This document shows, piece by piece, positions 1,117 to 23,022 of a stretch of 23,988 nucleotides of DNA. Source of the DNA: a bacterium. Its GTDB lineage: Bacteria; Cyanobacteriota; Vampirovibrionia; Gastranaerophilales; JBAXKC01. Position 1 is the stretch's first letter. Each line of letters opens with the position of its first letter. A program made the translations under genes and the position numbers. The notes under the pieces were generated by a model that saw only the letters and a list, made by a program, of their open reading frames with translations, ran no database searches and had not been told where the DNA came from. The stretch is from positions 1-23,988 of the forward strand of contig JBAXKC010000037.1 of NCBI GenBank assembly GCA_037137535.1, read 5' to 3'.

Positions 1117-1947
1117 ATGCAATACACAACATATGTAGAACAATGTTTAAGAAATAATAAAATCATTCGCTGGCCTGACTCAGCAATGCCTTTGACTGTC
1201 TATATAGCACCTTTCAGGTGGTATAACAAATCTCAAGGAGATGTTTATGCTTACAGACAAATGGTCTTTGATGCGCTCAAACTATGGGAAAAAGCCTCTG
1301 ACGGTTTAGTTTCTTTTCAAATAGTAGGAACTTTAAACGCATCTCAGATTAACCTTGAATGGAGAAGAGTAGACAGAAGTTCTTTGGGTGATTGCAATTT
1401 TAATTTTGATAATCAATCAAGACTTTTTTCGGCAGAAATAACCATAGGAATCTCTGACGGTGTTTTACATGCCCGCTATCAAGATAAAAATGAAGTTTAC
1501 CACACAATAGTCCATGAAGTGGGTCATGCTCTAGGATTAGGGCATAGTCCTTTCAAATCTGACATAATGTATGTCCCTCATCAGTTTGGGGTTGAAACTG
1601 CTTCTGAAATAGATAAAAACACTTTAAGATGGCTCTACAAATTCAATTACGGCTTAAATTCAGAGGAAATTTTATCTTCCTATAGCTCATACAGAGCCAC
1701 AAATCTTGATGATCTGGTTTTAAAGATAGAAAAACCACAAAAGATAAAAGAAGAGGTTGCCTCATTTAAACCGCCTCAACCGCAAAAATTAAGCCCTGCA
1801 CAATTAGATGAGCAACAAAAAATACTTGCCGATATAAATAAATATAATTTGTCTTTGCAAAATATTGGTCTTTCGCAAAAACATCAAAGTTTTATAAAAA
1901 AAATTCATATTGAAGAGTCCACGAAAAAAGACGATAAAAAGTTTTAA
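1117..1947 (+). CDS. Matrixin (M10-like, metzincin) zinc metalloprotease without an evident signal peptide
   Basis: HEVGHALGLGHS (HExxHxxGxxH) followed by Met-turn DIMY; N-terminal IRWP..PLTVYI segment. Confidence 0.9.
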   Translation: MQYTTYVEQCLRNNKIIRWPDSAMPLTVYIAPFRWYNKSQGDVYAYRQMVFDALKLWEKASDGLVSFQIVGTLNASQINLEWRRVDRSSLGDCNFNFDNQSRLFSAEITIGISDGVLHARYQDKNEVYHTIVHEVGHALGLGHSPFKSDIMYVPHQFGVETASEIDKNTLRWLYKFNYGLNSEEILSSYSSYRATNLDDLVLKIEKPQKIKEEVASFKPPQPQKLSPAQLDEQQKILADINKYNLSLQNIGLSQKHQSFIKKIHIEESTKKDDKKF

Positions 1948-14879: not shown

Positions 14880-16484
14880 TTATCTTCCAGAAATTTCTTC
14901 ATAGCTTCCATCAGGTAATTGTATATTTCTTTTATGTGGATCATCAGCATTAAATTTAGTAATTAAATCAGTTATTTTAGGATTATTTGTTTTTATAGCC
15001 TCTAAAGAATCACCTGTCTTATTTTGGAATAAAGACTTCTGATATAAATATCTCATGTCATTTAATGTAATTCCAGAATTTTGCTCTAATGTTTTAATTA
15101 TAGAATTATCTATATCATTTAACTCTAACTTTGAATCTGATAATATCTGTTTAATTCTCTCATTGTATGGAATTAATTCAGGTTGCTCTTTTTGAATATA
15201 CAAATTCAAATTTTTAGCGTGCTCTGCAAAAGGACTATAAATCATACATGTTAAATTTTCTTCAGTAACGCCTAATCTTTCTTTATAAAAATTTAAAACT
15301 TTTTGCTTCATATTATTTATTTTTTTGGGAGAATTGTATAACTCAGTTTGAGCTTTAATTAAGTCTTGAGGGAATTCTTTAGATTTCATCACAGGTAATG
15401 CTAATTGATCTATATATTCCTTTACTCCTTCCTCATAACTACGATTATGTAATTTTTCAACTCTTATTCCTCTTAAAACAGCCATTAATGCTGGAGCGGA
15501 ACAATCACTTTCGGTAAATGAAAAACTTAAATCATCAGAATTGAATTTAAAGCCAAGAAATTCATCTAACAATTTTCTATGAGAATTCAAGTCATATTTT
15601 GTATCACCATAAATTGTATAAAGAATTGGAATTTTTTGTCCTTTTGCAAGTTTAGGCATTTCATATCTATTAAGCCCGTTTTCACCATGGATTTCTTCAT
15701 TATATTTCTTTGAAACAGTATTAATGTCATCCATGTAATCCATAAAGCCTTTTTTCCTCTGAGTATTTTCTTTCCCCGTAACAAATTCAACTAAATTATT
15801 AATCCATTTTTTATAGTGGACTATTTCCTTTAATGAATCCCCTGTTATTATTAAATCCACACCGTTTCCATGTGTTATTGCATGTGCTTCGCCTTTTTGC
15901 ATATATCCGTTACAGAAATCGCAATAAAGTCTTCTACCTTCTCCGTTAGTTAGATTTCCTGCCATTAAAAGGTCTTTTCTGTCCCTTTGTATAACATTTT
16001 TAGGTATAGGTAATTTTATTATAGGTAACTTTTTAGTAAGTTGAGTTAATTGATCATCATCAGCAACAAATAACTCGACAAATTTATCTTTATACATTCC
16101 TAACTTTATAAAGACATTATGCACATTATTCATAACAGTATCAGGCATATGTGATTGTCGATTTGTAATTGTTCGAATATTAAAAGTTTTATTATTTTCA
16201 ATTGGCTTTAACAGTTTTAATTGAATATAACGTACAAAGGCAGTCATGTAAGAACTGTCTTTACCTCCACCATAAGTAACAAGAACCGTTTTTTGATCAA
16301 TATTTTCTTTTGTTGCATGTAAAGTGTCCATTAATTTTTTCAGTGATAAATCAGCTTCATTAATGCCTTTTTCTCCAAGATAATGCTCAAGTTGATTAAA
16401 CACCTTTTTTTGTGCTGAATTTAGTGCTTTAAAACCCATTTGAGACTTTAAATCAGTTCTATTAGAATTAATTGTATTTAACAT
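14880..16484 (-). CDS. Uncharacterised PP-loop (adenine nucleotide alpha-hydrolase) superfamily protein
   Basis: VLVTYGGGKDSSY (SGGKDS-like), YCDFCN CxxC, VDLIITGDS, ESDC; polar N-terminal extension; SD AAGGA. Confidence 0.7.
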   Translation of the reverse strand: MLNTINSNRTDLKSQMGFKALNSAQKKVFNQLEHYLGEKGINEADLSLKKLMDTLHATKENIDQKTVLVTYGGGKDSSYMTAFVRYIQLKLLKPIENNKTFNIRTITNRQSHMPDTVMNNVHNVFIKLGMYKDKFVELFVADDDQLTQLTKKLPIIKLPIPKNVIQRDRKDLLMAGNLTNGEGRRLYCDFCNGYMQKGEAHAITHGNGVDLIITGDSLKEIVHYKKWINNLVEFVTGKENTQRKKGFMDYMDDINTVSKKYNEEIHGENGLNRYEMPKLAKGQKIPILYTIYGDTKYDLNSHRKLLDEFLGFKFNSDDLSFSFTESDCSAPALMAVLRGIRVEKLHNRSYEEGVKEYIDQLALPVMKSKEFPQDLIKAQTELYNSPKKINNMKQKVLNFYKERLGVTEENLTCMIYSPFAEHAKNLNLYIQKEQPELIPYNERIKQILSDSKLELNDIDNSIIKTLEQNSGITLNDMRYLYQKSLFQNKTGDSLEAIKTNNPKITDLITKFNADDPHKRNIQLPDGSYEEISGR

Positions 16485-20418: not shown

Positions 20419-20802
20419 ATGCCAAAATTTCCTCAAAACGATGGAGTGAGGAGCGCAAATATAAATAATTGCCCTAAATATAAAAAAGCAGAACATAACG
20501 CTCAAGCCACTCCGCAACAATATGAAGACAAAAATATCAACTTAGGAAATTCTCCAACTAATTTCCTTGGAAGATCTCAGGTTCAAAAAGCACAAAGATT
20601 AAACCTTAAAAACTTTGATGCTCAAATGGTAGAAAATATCAAAAAAGATATGCTTGCTTTCAGTGCGAATAAAAACGCTCATGTGGCAGCAGATGCAGTT
20701 TTTGAGAAATCTTACAATAAAGAATCTAAAGAAAATAATCCTAATGCTTATGAACATGCTGTAAAAGTTCAATCTGAATTTATTAACGAATTTCAGAAAT
20801 AA
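20419..20802 (+). CDS. Hypothetical protein (polar N-terminus, TNFLGRSQV motif, helical C-terminus)
   Basis: 127-aa ORF with SD AGGAG and a downstream terminator; no family recognised. Confidence 0.8.
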   Translation: MPKFPQNDGVRSANINNCPKYKKAEHNAQATPQQYEDKNINLGNSPTNFLGRSQVQKAQRLNLKNFDAQMVENIKKDMLAFSANKNAHVAADAVFEKSYNKESKENNPNAYEHAVKVQSEFINEFQK

Positions 20803-20822
20803 ACTTTAATCACTGATTCAAA

Positions 20823-20867
20823 TAACAATATCCCCCTATTACATAAAGTAATAGGGGGATATTGTTA
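20823..20867. terminator. Perfect 20-bp inverted repeat between convergent genes (probable bidirectional terminator)
   Basis: TAACAATATCCCCCTATTAC - ATAAA - GTAATAGGGGGATATTGTTA; overlaps the ferredoxin stop codon. Confidence 0.8.
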
Positions 20868-21050
20868 AAGTTCTAATGATATTTTTATTACATTTACAGG
20901 GCATAGTTCAGCAGCTGTATAGCAATCATCTTCATTCCCTATTATATTTTCTTCCTGTATATGAGCTACCGCATTTAAAAAGAAAACTTCAGCGTTAATT
21001 GTTTCACAAGCTCCACAAGCAATACAACCTTGTAATATCTCAATTTTCAT
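20865..21050 (-). CDS. Single-cluster [4Fe-4S]/[3Fe-4S] ferredoxin
   Basis: CIACGAC...EVF...AAELCPVNVI; ATG 21050 follows SD GGGGA and is preferred over TTG 21062. Confidence 0.92.
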   Translation of the reverse strand: MKIEILQGCIACGACETINAEVFFLNAVAHIQEENIIGNEDDCYTAAELCPVNVIKISLEL

Positions 21051-21282
21051 AAACATCCCCAATAATCTTAATAATTAGCTTTTAAATTATATAAGCTAAT
21101 CTTTTATTATTAATTAACCATTAGAGTAAAGATTATTTATAATCATGCAAGAAAATCATTGCTAAAGGGGTAAAGGTGGTTAGATTAGTATAAGCAATTT
21201 TTAAAGGCAATTTGTTTTTATTATCTTACAGGTAAATCAGTTATTGTTGATAATTTTTTTATATAACTAAAGGATGGAATGA

Positions 21283-22164
21283 ATGATTTCAAAACTTAAT
21301 CAGACGAATCAGATTACTACAAATTACAACGTCTCAACTCAACCTAAAGCAGAGAACAATACTTCTTTGTTAACACAAGATGCGCCAGAAGATAGTTTTA
21401 CTAAAGCTAAACCCACAGGCAAACAAGAAGTTGCTTTTTCAGGTAGATTCACAGGTATAAAAAATTTTTTTACAAAATTAATTGGAAATGAAGGCACGCA
21501 ACTTACAAAAGCAGTACAAAACACTGCTGATAACATTATGGGGCAAATCACTTCCAAAGCCTCTATTATAGAAAAAAAAGTGCTTGCTGACGGTTATATG
21601 ATTGAACGTTTTGAAAACCCTATAACTAAAAGTGTTTCAAGATTTTCTTCGCTTGCAACAAAAAGTGCAAAAGAAATTTCAAGTGAACAATTAATTGCAG
21701 GTTATGAGGCAACTAAAAGAGGAGGTTATGCTGCCGCTGAGTCTTCATTAATGTATTCAATTGCAAAAGCTAAAGAATCAGGAGCAGAAGGCAAAGAAAT
21801 TTTAATGCAGGGCTTACAGCAACTTGCTCATACCTTTGCAAAACAACCTGATAAAAAAGAATATGTAAAACCTGTACTTGATGAACTAAAAACACTTTTA
21901 AAAGAAGAAAAAGGCTCTAAAAAAATACTAGAAAACTATACATGGCTGTCAAAATGCTATAAAAGTCTAGGTCAAACCTCTTTATCAAATGAATGTCTTA
22001 ATAATGCTAAAGAAATTGGAAGTGCGGCTGCATCATCAGGTAAAATATCTTGGGTGCAGTATTTTGAATCAATTGGAGATAAGGCAGGACTTGAAAGTTA
22101 TATAAAAAATGCCAACGCAAGAGGAATTCCAATAGACAGAGCAGGAATAAATAAAAGCTGGTAA
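21283..22164 (+). CDS. Hypothetical protein with N/T/Q-rich leader ending VAFSG and helical (TPR-like) C-terminus
   Basis: 293-aa ORF with SD AAGGA; no family recognised; followed by a terminator. Confidence 0.8.
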   Translation: MISKLNQTNQITTNYNVSTQPKAENNTSLLTQDAPEDSFTKAKPTGKQEVAFSGRFTGIKNFFTKLIGNEGTQLTKAVQNTADNIMGQITSKASIIEKKVLADGYMIERFENPITKSVSRFSSLATKSAKEISSEQLIAGYEATKRGGYAAAESSLMYSIAKAKESGAEGKEILMQGLQQLAHTFAKQPDKKEYVKPVLDELKTLLKEEKGSKKILENYTWLSKCYKSLGQTSLSNECLNNAKEIGSAAASSGKISWVQYFESIGDKAGLESYIKNANARGIPIDRAGINKSW

Positions 22165-22244
22165 ACCTAAAAGCCCAAAACACCTTGCTTATACAATAAA
22201 CTGATTCTCATAAGCAAAGTAAAAGATAAACTCAAGCAATTAAT

Positions 22245-22280
22245 AAATGGTTTCTGTATTGAATAGAAACCATTTTGTTT
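22245..22280 (+). terminator. Intrinsic terminator after the 293-aa hypothetical gene
   Basis: AAATGGTTTCT / AGAAACCATTT inverted repeat followed by TGTTT. Confidence 0.65.
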
Positions 22281-22410
22281 GATTGATATAAATTATTATG
22301 AATTCTTGTTATATCGTTTTTAAAATCGTAAACACTTTTGAAAATATAAATGTTTTATATATAATAAATTTTTTAAAAAATTTGTAGCTAAAGGCACTAA
22401 GAGGATAAAA

Positions 22411-23022
22411 ATGAAAACAAATTTAAATCTAAGTATAACTCAATGTTACACTCAAAAAACACATAATGCACAAGAAACTAATAAAATTCAAAATATTAAG
22501 CCTGATAGCATTTCCTTTAAAGGTAATCATTTTGAGCCTATATTAAACCTAGTCAGAGAAGAGGTAAAAAGTATCCTTCCTGAAGTAAATAATCCTGAAA
22601 AACTTTTAATTATTCTAAACATGGAGCATCATAATATTTCAAACCCAAAAGATTTTACAAAAGCAGTTGCAGGGAAAATAGCTAAAATGGAAAAAAAACC
22701 ATTTCAAGAAATGGTAGAAGGCTTTAGTAATATTGACAATATAAAATGGCTTGAATCAATGTTTAGAGATATTGCAGAATTCCTGCCTGAAGAACGACAA
22801 AAGGAATTTACAAAACTGGCAGATAAAGCTGTTTTTGAGAAAAATAATGATTGTAATCCTTTTAAAAAATCTAAAAATCCTATCTTGTTTAATATTGGAC
22901 ATCTTTTGGGAAATGTAATGTCAGATTTTATTAGGGTTGATGTGGAAGGACGAAATTCTTTTAAATATATAGAGAGAGATCTTTGGATTAATCCTGAAAC
23001 TATAAATCAATCAAAGAAATAA
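22411..23022 (+). CDS. Hypothetical protein with polar leader ending DSISFKG
   Basis: 203-aa ORF with SD GAGGA; no family recognised. Confidence 0.8.
   Translation: MKTNLNLSITQCYTQKTHNAQETNKIQNIKPDSISFKGNHFEPILNLVREEVKSILPEVNNPEKLLIILNMEHHNISNPKDFTKAVAGKIAKMEKKPFQEMVEGFSNIDNIKWLESMFRDIAEFLPEERQKEFTKLADKAVFEKNNDCNPFKKSKNPILFNIGHLLGNVMSDFIRVDVEGRNSFKYIERDLWINPETINQSKK

Follow-up and report, generated by a model that had tools for sequence, protein, structure and literature searches.

A motif-ended polar leader on unrelated proteins of a non-photosynthetic cyanobacterial relative: a candidate sorting tag

Where a sorting signal has a readable consensus, as with Sec, Tat, LPXTG and the C-terminal domains of the T9SS, whole secretomes can be read from genomes; to our knowledge, type III-like and other non-Sec routes mostly offer no such consensus. 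Chlamydial Inc proteins, a class of type III substrates, account for several percent of the proteome; many of them have hydrophobic segments soon after the N-terminal signal, and we know of no defined consensus motif among them. Leaders that do have a consensus include that of the type IV prepilins (Gly, then Phe/Met-x-x-x-Glu and a hydrophobic segment of about 20 residues) and the double-glycine leader of the C39 systems (Gly-Gly/Ala/Ser at -2,-1, with hydrophobic residues at -4, -7 and -12). Short tags on disordered ends also direct unrelated enzymes to one structure, as in encapsulin cargo loading and the encapsulation peptides of BMCs, and some encapsulin tags read G-S-L-K-G. For the Cia proteins and FlaC of Campylobacter jejuni, we know of no shared consensus motif. 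These non-flagellar proteins are reportedly exported via the flagellar apparatus (PMC2764114, PMC5223770). The early flagellar signal of Salmonella combines an N-terminal hydrophobic element (FlgD 2-SIAV-5) with a gate recognition motif whose docking site is FlhB-C (FlgD 36-FLTLL-40), and the two need a spacing of 19-30 residues (PMC8983047). The CCBD, (LMIF)xxx(IV)xx(IV)x(N), which Shigella and Salmonella effectors carry within their first 25-45 residues, is read by a multi-cargo partner, a class IB chaperone such as Spa15 or InvB, and overlaps a beta-strand motif (PMC3280449).

The DNA analysed here (the window) is a contig of 23,988 nucleotides from a member of the Gastranaerophilales. The initial annotation had pointed out four otherwise dissimilar proteins with a polar leader ending in x-x-F-x-[G/A]; counted on the translations, all four motifs sit where it placed them. 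The features concerned are as follows.

16425..16439, minus strand: MGFKA, aa 16-20 of a 534-aa PP-loop-like protein (14880-16484); weak instance
20419..20802, plus strand: ORF of 127 aa with two candidate motifs; doubtful member
20557-20571, plus strand: TNFLG of ORF 20419, aa 47-51; weak instance
20653-20667, plus strand: LAFSA of ORF 20419, aa 79-83; PSSM 19.0 bits, HMM A1 match 20632-20679
21192..21225, plus strand: promoter-like pair before ORF 21283, AAGCAATT at 21192-21199 and GTTTTTATTATC at 21214-21225
21283..22164, plus strand: orphan ORF of 293 aa; leader aa 1-49 (nt 21283-21429, motif from nt 21430)
21430-21444, plus strand: VAFSG of ORF 21283, aa 50-54; PSSM 15.5 bits
22245..22275, plus strand: terminator-like hairpin after ORF 21283, a 13-pair stem followed by a T-rich tail
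22411..23022, plus strand: orphan ORF of 203 aa; leader aa 1-33 (nt 22411-22509)
22510-22524, plus strand: ISFKG of ORF 22411, aa 34-38; PSSM 18.2 bits

With a position-specific matrix (PSSM) listing hits from 11 bits, only ORFs 20419, 21283 and 22411 of the window pass. MGFKA, which sits on a 20-residue N-terminal extension starting MLNTINSN, falls under that threshold and is at best a weak instance. In ORF 20419 the matrix and the HMM favor LAFSA over the proposed TNFLG; its N-terminus, MPKFPQND, differs from the usual leader start. Two homologues of this ORF (approximately 70% identity) have PTNFLGRSQ unchanged and LSFKS or LSFKA at the second site, and in one family of small paralogues the motif is followed by EMLAFSS, which the DMLAFSA of this ORF resembles. 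ORF 22411 also has an HMM A1 match (22480-22536, 19.9 bits). For both ORF 21283 and ORF 22411, protein searches (5.8 billion proteins for the former), with longer and shorter length classes left out, returned only the query itself, and neither matched a Pfam or NCBIfam family above cut-off. The Atlas gave weak TPR-like leads for ORF 21283 (score at most 0.87, below the tool's own bars) and sub-threshold structural leads for ORF 22411. The mature part of the ORF 21283 product is probably all-helical. Each of the three genes had been credited with its own Shine-Dalgarno site and terminator: an SD-like site precedes all three, and a simple scan of the plus strand places a terminator only after ORF 21283.

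The genome of the window (2.95 Mb, 31% G+C, rated 100% complete) yielded 2843 ORFs with a simple ORF caller, 2687 of at least 60 aa, a gene set in which start codons may be off. Its top N-terminally enriched 4-mer is SFKG, with 23 occurrences in aa 5-80 against 11 elsewhere (6.7-fold, Fisher p 4e-8). When the check suggested by the initial annotation was run, [VIMTP]-x-F-x-[GA] proved enriched, occurring in the first 70 aa of 342 of the 2687 ORFs versus 234±14 in 20 shuffles. A sharper pattern, [VIL][SA]F[KSTG][GA], was found in 67 ORFs, compared with 9.4±2.7 in shuffles that preserve the composition of each N-terminus; among 1717 long ORFs it occurred 36 times at the N-terminus, eight times in an internal window and six times at the C-terminus. 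The PSSM, trained on this same genome, selected 171 ORFs, an inflated figure, against 17-26 in shuffles, and an approximately fourfold enrichment remained on held-out halves (24 vs 1-11 and 35 vs 4-11). Codons at the motif are mixed for both serine (TCT 15, AGT 14, TCA 9, TCC 8, AGC 3) and glycine (GGT 23, GGA 21, GGC 7, GGG 3), and this diversity rules out a DNA repeat as the source of the motif.

Subsequent counts refer to a strict set of 98 proteins, selected for having no 12-aa window with a mean hydropathy of 1.0 or more ahead of the motif. BLAST clustering of the mature parts divided them into 82 unrelated clusters, and 45 of the 57 members scanned had no Pfam family. The central claim of the initial annotation, a shared polar, non-Sec leader with a conserved x-x-F-x-G on otherwise unrelated and mostly orphan proteins, is borne out genome-wide. 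The tag has three parts: an opening M-x(0-3)-[ILV]-N, a leader of variable length that is acid-poor, rich in N/Q/S/T/K and probably disordered, and a short, strand-like [VIL]-[SA]-F-[KTS]-[GA] with which the leader ends; it has come to stand on many unrelated proteins, among them second copies of ordinary enzymes that arose by duplication. In the strict set, the leader covers 6-75 residues before the motif, is N/Q-rich, acid-poor and without a hydrophobic core, and sets no fixed distance between N-terminus and motif, the Phe lying at positions 9 to 78. Asparagine is increased 3.0-fold and glutamine 2.4-fold, and D, E and G stand at 0.3-0.4-fold, values that are partly circular given that the set was picked for polarity; R stands at 0.72-fold. 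The start M-x(0-3)-[ILV]-N occurs in 48/98 tagged proteins versus 275/2589 other ORFs, with I or L most frequent at position 2. The motif forms a boundary: composition is N/Q-rich before it and ordinary from about +5. Glycine occupies +2 in 54/98 and asparagine +3 in 28/98; ahead of the final Gly the tally is 37 K, 16 T, 16 S and 15 G among the 98. The P-(E)-D-S noted upstream of two motifs survives as part of a wider sub-consensus, an aspartate at position -4 in 15 of the 98 members. A membrane helix lies within 60 aa downstream of the motif in 17/98, VanY and M14 peptidases included. Several tagged proteins have AAA, NTP-transferase, PP-loop-like, DnaJ, FHA, DSP-phosphatase or DHH domains, of kinds that typically act on nucleotide substrates or take part in signalling within the cytoplasm; such proteins would make sense only in a cytoplasm, whether the cell's own or that of another cell.

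The motif lies outside the folded domain. Homologues elsewhere lack the leader: of 155 found for the PP-loop protein, the majority begin downstream of it. Among the N-termini of P0002-P0049, most start no earlier than the helix downstream of the extension, which is kept only in a query-identical fragment (P0004) and in P0006 (63% identity, ILNFKALN). The DHH phosphoesterases of four families of the order (G000, G124, G121 and G136) have leaders that vary in both length and sequence, with [VIL]-[SG]-F-x-[AG] kept directly ahead of the domain. A leaderless DHH paralogue of 324 aa is encoded in the genome of the window, and a form of approximately 330 aa, aligning from query residue 43-63, was present in 20 of 20 relatives searched; orthologues of the DHH enzyme that have no leader exist as well. 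Because the codons of the motif vary and the DHH family keeps the motif though its leader diverges, we conclude that selection acts at the protein level. The SFKG-type N-terminal tag is real, selected and modular, and we put the probability that it functions as a genuine sorting or recognition tag at about 0.9.

As had been supposed, the tag is lineage-specific: it is enriched within this order and commonest in the genome of the window, in a comparison biased toward that genome, as the counts depend on the simple ORF caller and on a PSSM and an HMM trained on it. N-terminal copies turn up in six further genomes of the order, and 400-kb samples of four other genomes gave counts too low to compare with confidence, 5/394, 1/382, 5/407 and 2/361, versus 0-3 in shuffled sequences. 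An orphan protein of approximately 495 aa consisting of an FlhA C-domain (FlhA-C) is present in 20/20 relatives of the same order and sporadic in other families of the class; the tag shows a similar enrichment within the order. A second copy of FlhA is a common feature of the class, also in families in which the tag is rare, so that the presence of an export gate does not predict the tag. A literature search found no description of this motif in Melainabacteria, which is not proof of absence.

Many tagged genes share a promoter, TGGCAATT-N13-GTTTTTATATAT, found upstream of 25/98 tagged genes versus 100/2589 others and, where the upstream gap is at least 120 nt, of 19/70 versus 81/1210 (p 4e-7), suggesting that these genes belong to a common programme. 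A promoter of this type also precedes a two-gene operon that contains one of the orphan FlhA-C genes (C2:107687). In the window, the pair before ORF 21283 scores 20.1 with the promoter matrix and lies 91 nt upstream of the start codon; ORF 20419 scores 16.6 and ORF 22411 14.0, the last having a near-canonical TTGAAA-16-TATAAT instead. The shared promoter was not found at flagellin promoters. A canonical sigma-28 promoter, TAAAGTTT-N-GCCGATAA, is present in the genome, mainly ahead of small-RNA copies; control of the tagged genes by sigma-28 was rejected, as k-mers of the TAAAGTTT/GCCGATAA type are not enriched upstream of them.

Set beside the early flagellar signal, the tag is similar in being N-terminal, unchaperoned and within a disordered region, in having a small hydrophobic residue near positions 2-5 (the start found in 48/98) and in placing a short Phe-centered motif after a polar linker; moreover, tag-like sequences, N-T-V-G-F-K-G or V-A-F-K-A, occur in the genome's own rod and hook proteins. 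The tag differs from that signal in its consensus, [VIL]-[SA]-F-[KTS]-G rather than F-x-x-x-hydrophobic, with mostly K, Q or N at +4 after the Phe, in its spacing, which is too short for 19-30 residues where the Phe lies at or before residue 23 (40/98) or residue 16 (27/98), and in its occurrence on about 60-100 non-flagellar proteins. The motif F-x-x-x-[ILVMF] shows no enrichment over the 25 residues that follow the tag (20/98 versus 24% of control windows), and Pfam PF00460 (Flg_bb_rod) matched five genes in the whole genome, all true rod/hook genes in flagellar clusters and none of them tagged. The tag does not follow defining rules of the early-subunit signal. With the CCBD it shares the nature of a short, unstructured N-terminal sequence common to unrelated substrates; it departs from it in consensus, and the CCBD system is an injectisome. 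The search for an injectisome here covered FlhA/SctV-type and FliF/SctJ-type genes. The single CesT-like match scored 17.2 bits against a cut-off of 22, and the N-termini encoded in its gene cluster resemble those of PspA, TerC and TerD. The Campylobacter Cia proteins and FlaC would resemble the tagged proteins in using a flagellar gate for non-flagellar cargo with an amino-terminal signal, whereas a handful of proteins there contrasts with dozens here that have a recognizable consensus and a promoter class to themselves. The Inc proteins are comparable in scale (2-4% of ORFs here), in being orphans and in the early membrane helix of 17/98 members; the organism of the window, however, is not known to live inside cells, and no injectisome came to light among the gene types searched.

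An h-region of the Sec, lipoprotein or Tat kind is absent from the strict-set leaders by construction of the set. Unlike in prepilins, the Phe precedes the Gly, glutamate is not enriched at +3 to +8, and only the 17/98 have a hydrophobic segment within 60 aa; genuine pilin-like N-termini of this genome, such as MRKAFTLAEIL, look different. Gly-Gly is a minority form of the tag, as given by the 15/98 with G ahead of the final Gly. The tag's [VI]-S-F-K-G does resemble the encapsulin G-S-L-K-G, and a cargo tag for family-1 encapsulins or BMCs was rejected, with no match to PF04454 or PF00936 at E up to 0.1 in this genome, rated 100% complete.

We propose that a single cytoplasmic reader would bind the invariant Phe motif, and that the tagged proteins would then be passed on, N-terminus leading, to either of the genome's two flagellar-type III export gates, perhaps through an adaptor; cleavage after the Gly would be a possible step. 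The genome encodes two FlhA, two FlhB, two FliF, two FliI-like ATPases and seven flagellin-like proteins, together with four orphan FlhA C-domain proteins. A complex prediction, run without controls, for the order-conserved orphan FlhA-C protein (A2, 23 rows) and a small tagged family (A3, 5 rows) scored 0.00, the mark being 0.32, which says nothing either way about binding. Flagellins here start MSIVVNTN, and a likely FlgM starts MVNGINGNSINS, close to a tag leader, MINGINNSINS; in composition and in its M-x(0-3)-[ILV]-N start, the tag leader would be compatible with type III signals. A VirB4-type T4SS ATPase was not found in the genome search. Three secretins are encoded; the systems they belong to, as far as is known, need Sec or Tat signals first. 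The link to a flagellar or type III apparatus is drawn only from elimination among the systems searched, the leader composition and the two flagellar export gates. Among the observations on the other side, the motif is absent from the true flagellar substrates examined here (FlgD, FliK, FlgK, FlgL and the flagellins), and the 17/98 proteins with an early membrane helix fit at least equally well the cytoplasmic tail of a membrane protein. Judged from sequence, export of the tagged proteins by this apparatus is possible; of the mechanisms weighed it is the one we favor, and we advance it tentatively.

The same data were weighed against other explanations. That the pattern might only reflect base composition, N-termini of low complexity, gene starts rich in A/T codons, misplaced start codons or a DNA repeat, and be functionless as a protein motif, is a natural concern at 31% G+C, with N, K and I frequent at all N-termini, gene calls that are crude and a loose pattern that appears in 234 shuffled N-termini as well. 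The composition-keeping shuffles, the held-out tests, the varied codons, the orthologues of four families that keep the motif despite leader divergence and the recurrence of the motif at N-termini in six further genomes all speak against it; with these controls it is close to refuted, and we give it hardly any credence. The tag could instead be a cytoplasmic short linear motif through which a single hub, scaffold, chaperone or modifying enzyme gathers soluble proteins and the cytoplasmic tails of membrane proteins, with no export involved. Docking of this kind would account for the free distance between motif and N-terminus, the helix that follows in 17/98 (the tag of VanY or the M14 peptidase would stay cytoplasmic), the cytoplasmic-type domains on many tagged proteins and, through the common promoter, their common programme; yet the restriction to N-termini (36 versus 8 internal and 6 C-terminal) serves no obvious docking need, the acid-poor leader with its M-x-[ILV]-N start resembles a threading or export signal, and a candidate hub was not found. 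We regard this explanation as doubtful.

Alternatively, the tag may be the leader of an undescribed export or processing route other than type III, such as a dedicated peptidase cutting behind the Gly and coupled to a transporter, or the loading of vesicles or phage-tail-like particles. The sharp change in composition and the Gly at +2 (54/98) and Asn at +3 (28/98) have the look expected of a cleavage site, and the tag is enriched in the order while flagellar gates occur throughout the class. No candidate peptidase or transporter is linked to the tagged genes, as seen outside a systematic screen of neighborhoods or co-occurrence, however, and the motif seems to lack the Gly-Gly and hydrophobic spacing of C39 leaders and does not have the Gly-Phe...Glu and hydrophobic segment of prepilins. 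One contractile-sheath gene (C35:10328-10858) would suit particle loading, but it lies among phage-like genes and looks like part of a prophage. On balance, such a route seems unlikely.

Whatever its reader, a simple motif marks 2-4% of the ORFs of an uncultured lineage, mostly of no assigned function, and a shared promoter joins many of them in one programme, turning hypothetical proteins of the Melainabacteria (Vampirovibrionia) into a defined set open to experiment. The tag looks like an undescribed address label of a non-photosynthetic cyanobacterial relative, and it bears on what the gut and freshwater relatives of the cyanobacteria do to their surroundings. Should that reader be one of the flagellar-type gates, or the orphan proteins with the FlhA C-domain, type III substrates would be selected here in a new manner; any other reader would point to an undescribed targeting system.

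In its most far-reaching form, the flagellar reading would have a flagellum-derived system exporting or injecting some 60-100 proteins with a consensus tag, expressed together from their own promoter class and read by lineage-specific, soluble copies of the FlhA docking domain. We consider this quite improbable. If true, the proteins would be aimed at the cytoplasm of a different cell, given that the cargo includes ATP-using and signalling enzymes, the freshwater lineage would be an undescribed effector-injecting symbiont or predator, and the tag would be the first type III-like signal readable by eye.

In our data the loose pattern [VIMTP]-x-F-x-[GA], proposed by the initial annotation from the polar leaders of four proteins encoded in the window, was present in 342 ORFs within their first 70 aa, as against 234±14 in 20 shuffles that preserved each N-terminus's own composition. 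The pattern was set before the data were seen, and its excess is about 100 ORFs. The contig under study (C37) belongs to a 2.95-Mb genome (G000; 81 contigs, 31% G+C), in which ORFs were called by a self-written procedure that takes the longest ORFs greedily and chooses starts by a combined Shine-Dalgarno and start-codon score; every count reported here rests on these simple calls (2843 ORFs, 2687 of at least 60 aa). An unbiased k-mer test, comparing aa 5-80 with the remainder of each protein, returned SFKG as the most enriched N-terminal 4-mer (23 versus 11, 6.7-fold, p 4e-8), with VSF, LSF, ISF and FKG among the leading 3-mers. The narrower motif [VIL][SA]F[KSTG][GA] was present in 67 ORFs as against 9.4±2.7 in shuffles; the 1717 long ORFs showed 36 N-terminal occurrences, compared with 8 in an internal window and 6 at the C-terminus. 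With a cut-off of 11 bits, a 14-column PSSM retrieved 171 ORFs (17-26 when shuffled), a figure inflated by training on the same genome; trained on half the contigs and scored on the other half, it gave 24 versus 1-11 and 35 versus 4-11. A fair estimate is that 60-100 ORFs, or 2-4% of the total, bear the tag.

Translation placed the four motifs of the window at exactly the positions first assigned to them:

ORF 20419-20802, + strand: TNFLG, aa 47-51
ORF 21283-22164, + strand: VAFSG, aa 50-54
ORF 22411-23022, + strand: ISFKG, aa 34-38
ORF 14880-16484, minus strand (PP-loop-like protein): MGFKA, aa 16-20

The three clustered ORFs matched no Pfam or NCBIfam family above cut-off; in a large protein search, ORFs 21283 and 22411 had no homologues, and ORF 20419 had two, at 70% identity. 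MGFKA scored below the PSSM threshold and is a doubtful instance of the tag. ORF 20419 does contain TNFLG, but the models favour LAFSA (aa 79-83) instead; because both sites are kept in the two homologues and the N-terminus is atypical for tag leaders, either site, or neither, may be the tag. Elsewhere in the window, the product of 1117-1947 (+ strand) is a zinc metalloprotease of matrixin-like type (HEVGHALGLGH; Pfam Peptidase_M10, E 1.5e-10); its C-terminal tail is long and polar, and a signal peptide is not evident.

The strict set comprises the 98 PSSM matches whose leader is polar and has no hydrophobic stretch. Its core runs V/I/L, S/A, F (96 of 98), K/T/S/G, G/A/S, often followed by N, with the Phe at position 9-78 (median 27.5). 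A start of the form M-x(0-3)-[ILV]-N is seen in nearly half of the members (48 of 98) but in only 275 of the other 2589 ORFs, and the leaders are rich in Asn (20.8%, 3.0-fold) and Gln (2.4-fold) and poor in Asp, Glu and Gly (0.3-0.4-fold), a bias that is partly circular, as polarity was the filter. Residue composition is back to ordinary about 5 residues past the Phe, which makes the motif the boundary at which the leader stops. An Asp at -4 in 15 of the 98 members accounts for the 'P-(E)-D-S' that the initial annotation had remarked upon. The codons of the motif are as mixed as those of the genome at large, which rules out an origin as a DNA repeat.

The mature parts of the 98 members fall into 82 BLAST clusters. 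No Pfam family was matched by 45 of the 57 members scanned; ten matched VanY, Peptidase_M14, DnaJ, dual-specificity phosphatase, DHH/DHHA1, FHA, NTP_transferase, AAA or CR6_interact (the last in one member, sub-threshold), and two, Mfd and IleRS, are plain false positives. A membrane helix follows within 60 aa of the motif in 17 of 98, including the VanY and M14 proteins, and 33 tagged genes lie no more than 3 kb from another tagged gene, compared with 15.5±4.7 in random sets. The observation of one polar leader and motif shared by unrelated proteins is confirmed and can be widened: some 60-100 unrelated proteins bear an N-terminal tag that is modular, under selection and order-wide. We put the probability that it is a real recognition or sorting tag at roughly 0.9.

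Homologues without the leader exist for two of the proteins. The DHH phosphoesterase offers the clearest case of selection on the protein sequence of the tag: G000 carries two copies, one leaderless (324 aa, C25) and one tagged (400 aa, C47). Every one of the 20 same-order relatives searched has a form of some 330 aa whose alignment to the tagged copy begins only at residue 43-63, and in G124, G121 and G136 a long copy is present as well. The leaders of the four long copies differ in length and sequence, and each has its pentapeptide (VSFSA, ISFAG, LSFKG, LGFSG) some 20-25 residues ahead of the domain's first conserved block. The PP-loop-like protein has 155 homologues; among the matches listed, most start no earlier than the helix downstream of its 20-residue extension, and only one relative (63% identity) keeps that extension.

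Tagged genes are partly under one promoter class. The k-mers TAGCAATT and GTTTTTAT, which stood out upstream of these genes, are parts of a promoter-like pair, TGGCAATT-N13-GTTTTTATATAT, that in most cases sits 60-80 nt upstream of the start codon. At 16 bits or more the pair precedes 25 of 98 tagged and 100 of 2589 other genes (p 4e-13; reverse-complement control, 46 versus 125); restricted to upstream spacers of at least 120 nt, the counts are 19 of 70 and 81 of 1210 (p 4e-7). Most of the other genes behind it also have polar, unfamiliar N-termini. In the window, the pair and its substitute are distributed as follows:

21192-21225, + strand: promoter-like pair upstream of ORF 21283, a good copy (score 20.1)
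ORF 20419: a copy weaker than that of ORF 21283
ORF 22411: a near-canonical sigma-70-type site in place of the pair

The pair is not a sigma-28 promoter; the canonical TAAAGTTT-N-GCCGATAA is present elsewhere in the genome, chiefly ahead of copies of a small RNA, and the flagellin genes of G000 lack the TGGCAATT-N13-GTTTTTATATAT promoter. Genome-wide, about 100-125 genes lie behind the pair, nearly all encoding products with polar N-termini and no obvious family. Many of them (for example C2:27637-28680, C3:48687-49190, C15:4759-6450, C51:10976-12370 and C45:11574-12209) start M-[GAS] and by eye show an [SA]-[SG]-[IV]-F-like triplet (SIF/SVF) 30-50 residues in, which may represent a second leader type.

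The distribution of the tag in the class was surveyed with a 21-column HMM (A1) built from 35 tags of G000, in whole-genome searches at E up to 10. G000, the sole member of its family in the genome collection, gave 36-48 matches depending on the search; among 120 further genomes of the class the number ran from 0 to 6 (69 with none), and among the 20 same-order genomes from 0 to 13 (G129, 13; G121 and G124, 8 each), a contrast with relatives that is overstated because the HMM, trained on G000, favours Asn-rich flanks. About 16 of 20 retrieved matches, from G129, G121, G124, G136, G126 and G122, were N-terminal behind polar leaders; in the other four the best site lay 116-174 residues inside the frame. 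The tag is present across the order and appears most expanded in G000. A literature search at the level of brief records found no published description of it.

To our knowledge, of the known systems searched for, only flagellar-type gates accept non-hydrophobic N-terminal signals directly from the cytoplasm. No VirB4-type T4SS ATPase, family-1 encapsulin or BMC shell was found in G000, which has three secretins and one phage-type sheath gene amid phage-like genes. It also has two each of FlhA, FlhB, FliF and FliI-like ATPases, two rod-gene sets (FlgB/FlgC) and 7 flagellin-like genes:

C36:1706-8066 and C3:62058-67096: basal-body/export-gate set 1
C13:60-10372 and C21:47278-48351: basal-body/export-gate set 2, more divergent
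C34:182-1675, C2:107687-109057, C27:25204-26991 and C60:3193-4599: four stand-alone proteins with the FlhA/SctV C-terminal domain, the cytoplasmic docking domain (L003-L006)

FlhA occurs in 95 of 121 genomes of the class, most with two matches, and two copies are usual in most families. The four stand-alone proteins, of a kind for which we know of no description, have unrelated N-termini, and one of them is anchored in the membrane. Proteins of the C34 type, about 495 aa long with the N-terminus MF..R.EY.VKTC....LLN.M..EGWELY, were found in 20 of 20 same-order genomes searched and sporadically elsewhere in the class. No convincing chaperone was found in G000. C30:89-3961, rejected as a secretion-chaperone locus, looks rather like an envelope-stress locus: the N-termini of its first products resemble those of TerD (twice), TerC and PspA, and after these come an acidic protein of 131 aa, whose CesT-like match is sub-threshold, and a protein that has a J-domain-like segment.

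Tentatively, we regard it as possible that a flagellar-type III apparatus reads the tag as an export signal. Leader composition is consistent with it, as are the likeness of the leader start to the N-termini of the G000 flagellins and a likely FlgM, rod and hook proteins with V-G-F-K-G or V-A-F-K-A at a similar N-terminal distance, and several tagged proteins with domains that typically use nucleotide substrates. Against it, the true flagellar substrates of G000 lack the tag, Pfam Flg_bb_rod matches none of the tagged genes, the tagged-gene promoter is unlike the flagellar late promoter, and gates are widespread in families that seldom carry the tag. Early flagellar subunits of Salmonella carry an F-x-x-x-hydrophobic motif with a minimum N-terminal spacing (PMC8983047); tagged proteins, in contrast, lack this motif, and in 40 of 98 the tag lies too near the N-terminus. 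A precedent for a conserved motif recognised by one chaperone with many cargoes is the CCBD found in effectors of Shigella and Salmonella (PMC3280449); its consensus differs from that of the tag.

Also against the flagellar reading, members with a membrane helix suit a cytoplasmic tail as well as they suit a substrate. That the tag is a cytoplasmic docking motif we think unlikely. A leader for another export or processing route is fairly improbable, and an artefact scarcely credible. The balance falls to some further explanation.

The likely FlgM (C15:17617-17934, 105 aa) starts MVNGINGNSINS and lies between FlgJ-like and FlgN/FlgK/FlgL-like genes, all named from position and N-terminal sequence only; its N-Q-A-F-K-K is close to the tag, but scores about 0 with the PSSM. 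Among the tagged genes, C24:41704-41970, C4:15806-16084, C45:12604-12870, C12:53026-53286 and C50:3413-3673 form one small family (86-92 aa) with a conserved G-L-[ND]-[LV]-I-[GA] at the extreme C-terminus, and share an 'MLAFS' element with ORF 20419 of the window. C25:29127-30881 encodes a tandem array of five paralogues (111-115 aa), each with a near-identical leader, MQLTTRTTANYPTYQK...VAFSG, and a hydrophobic segment at the C-terminal end.
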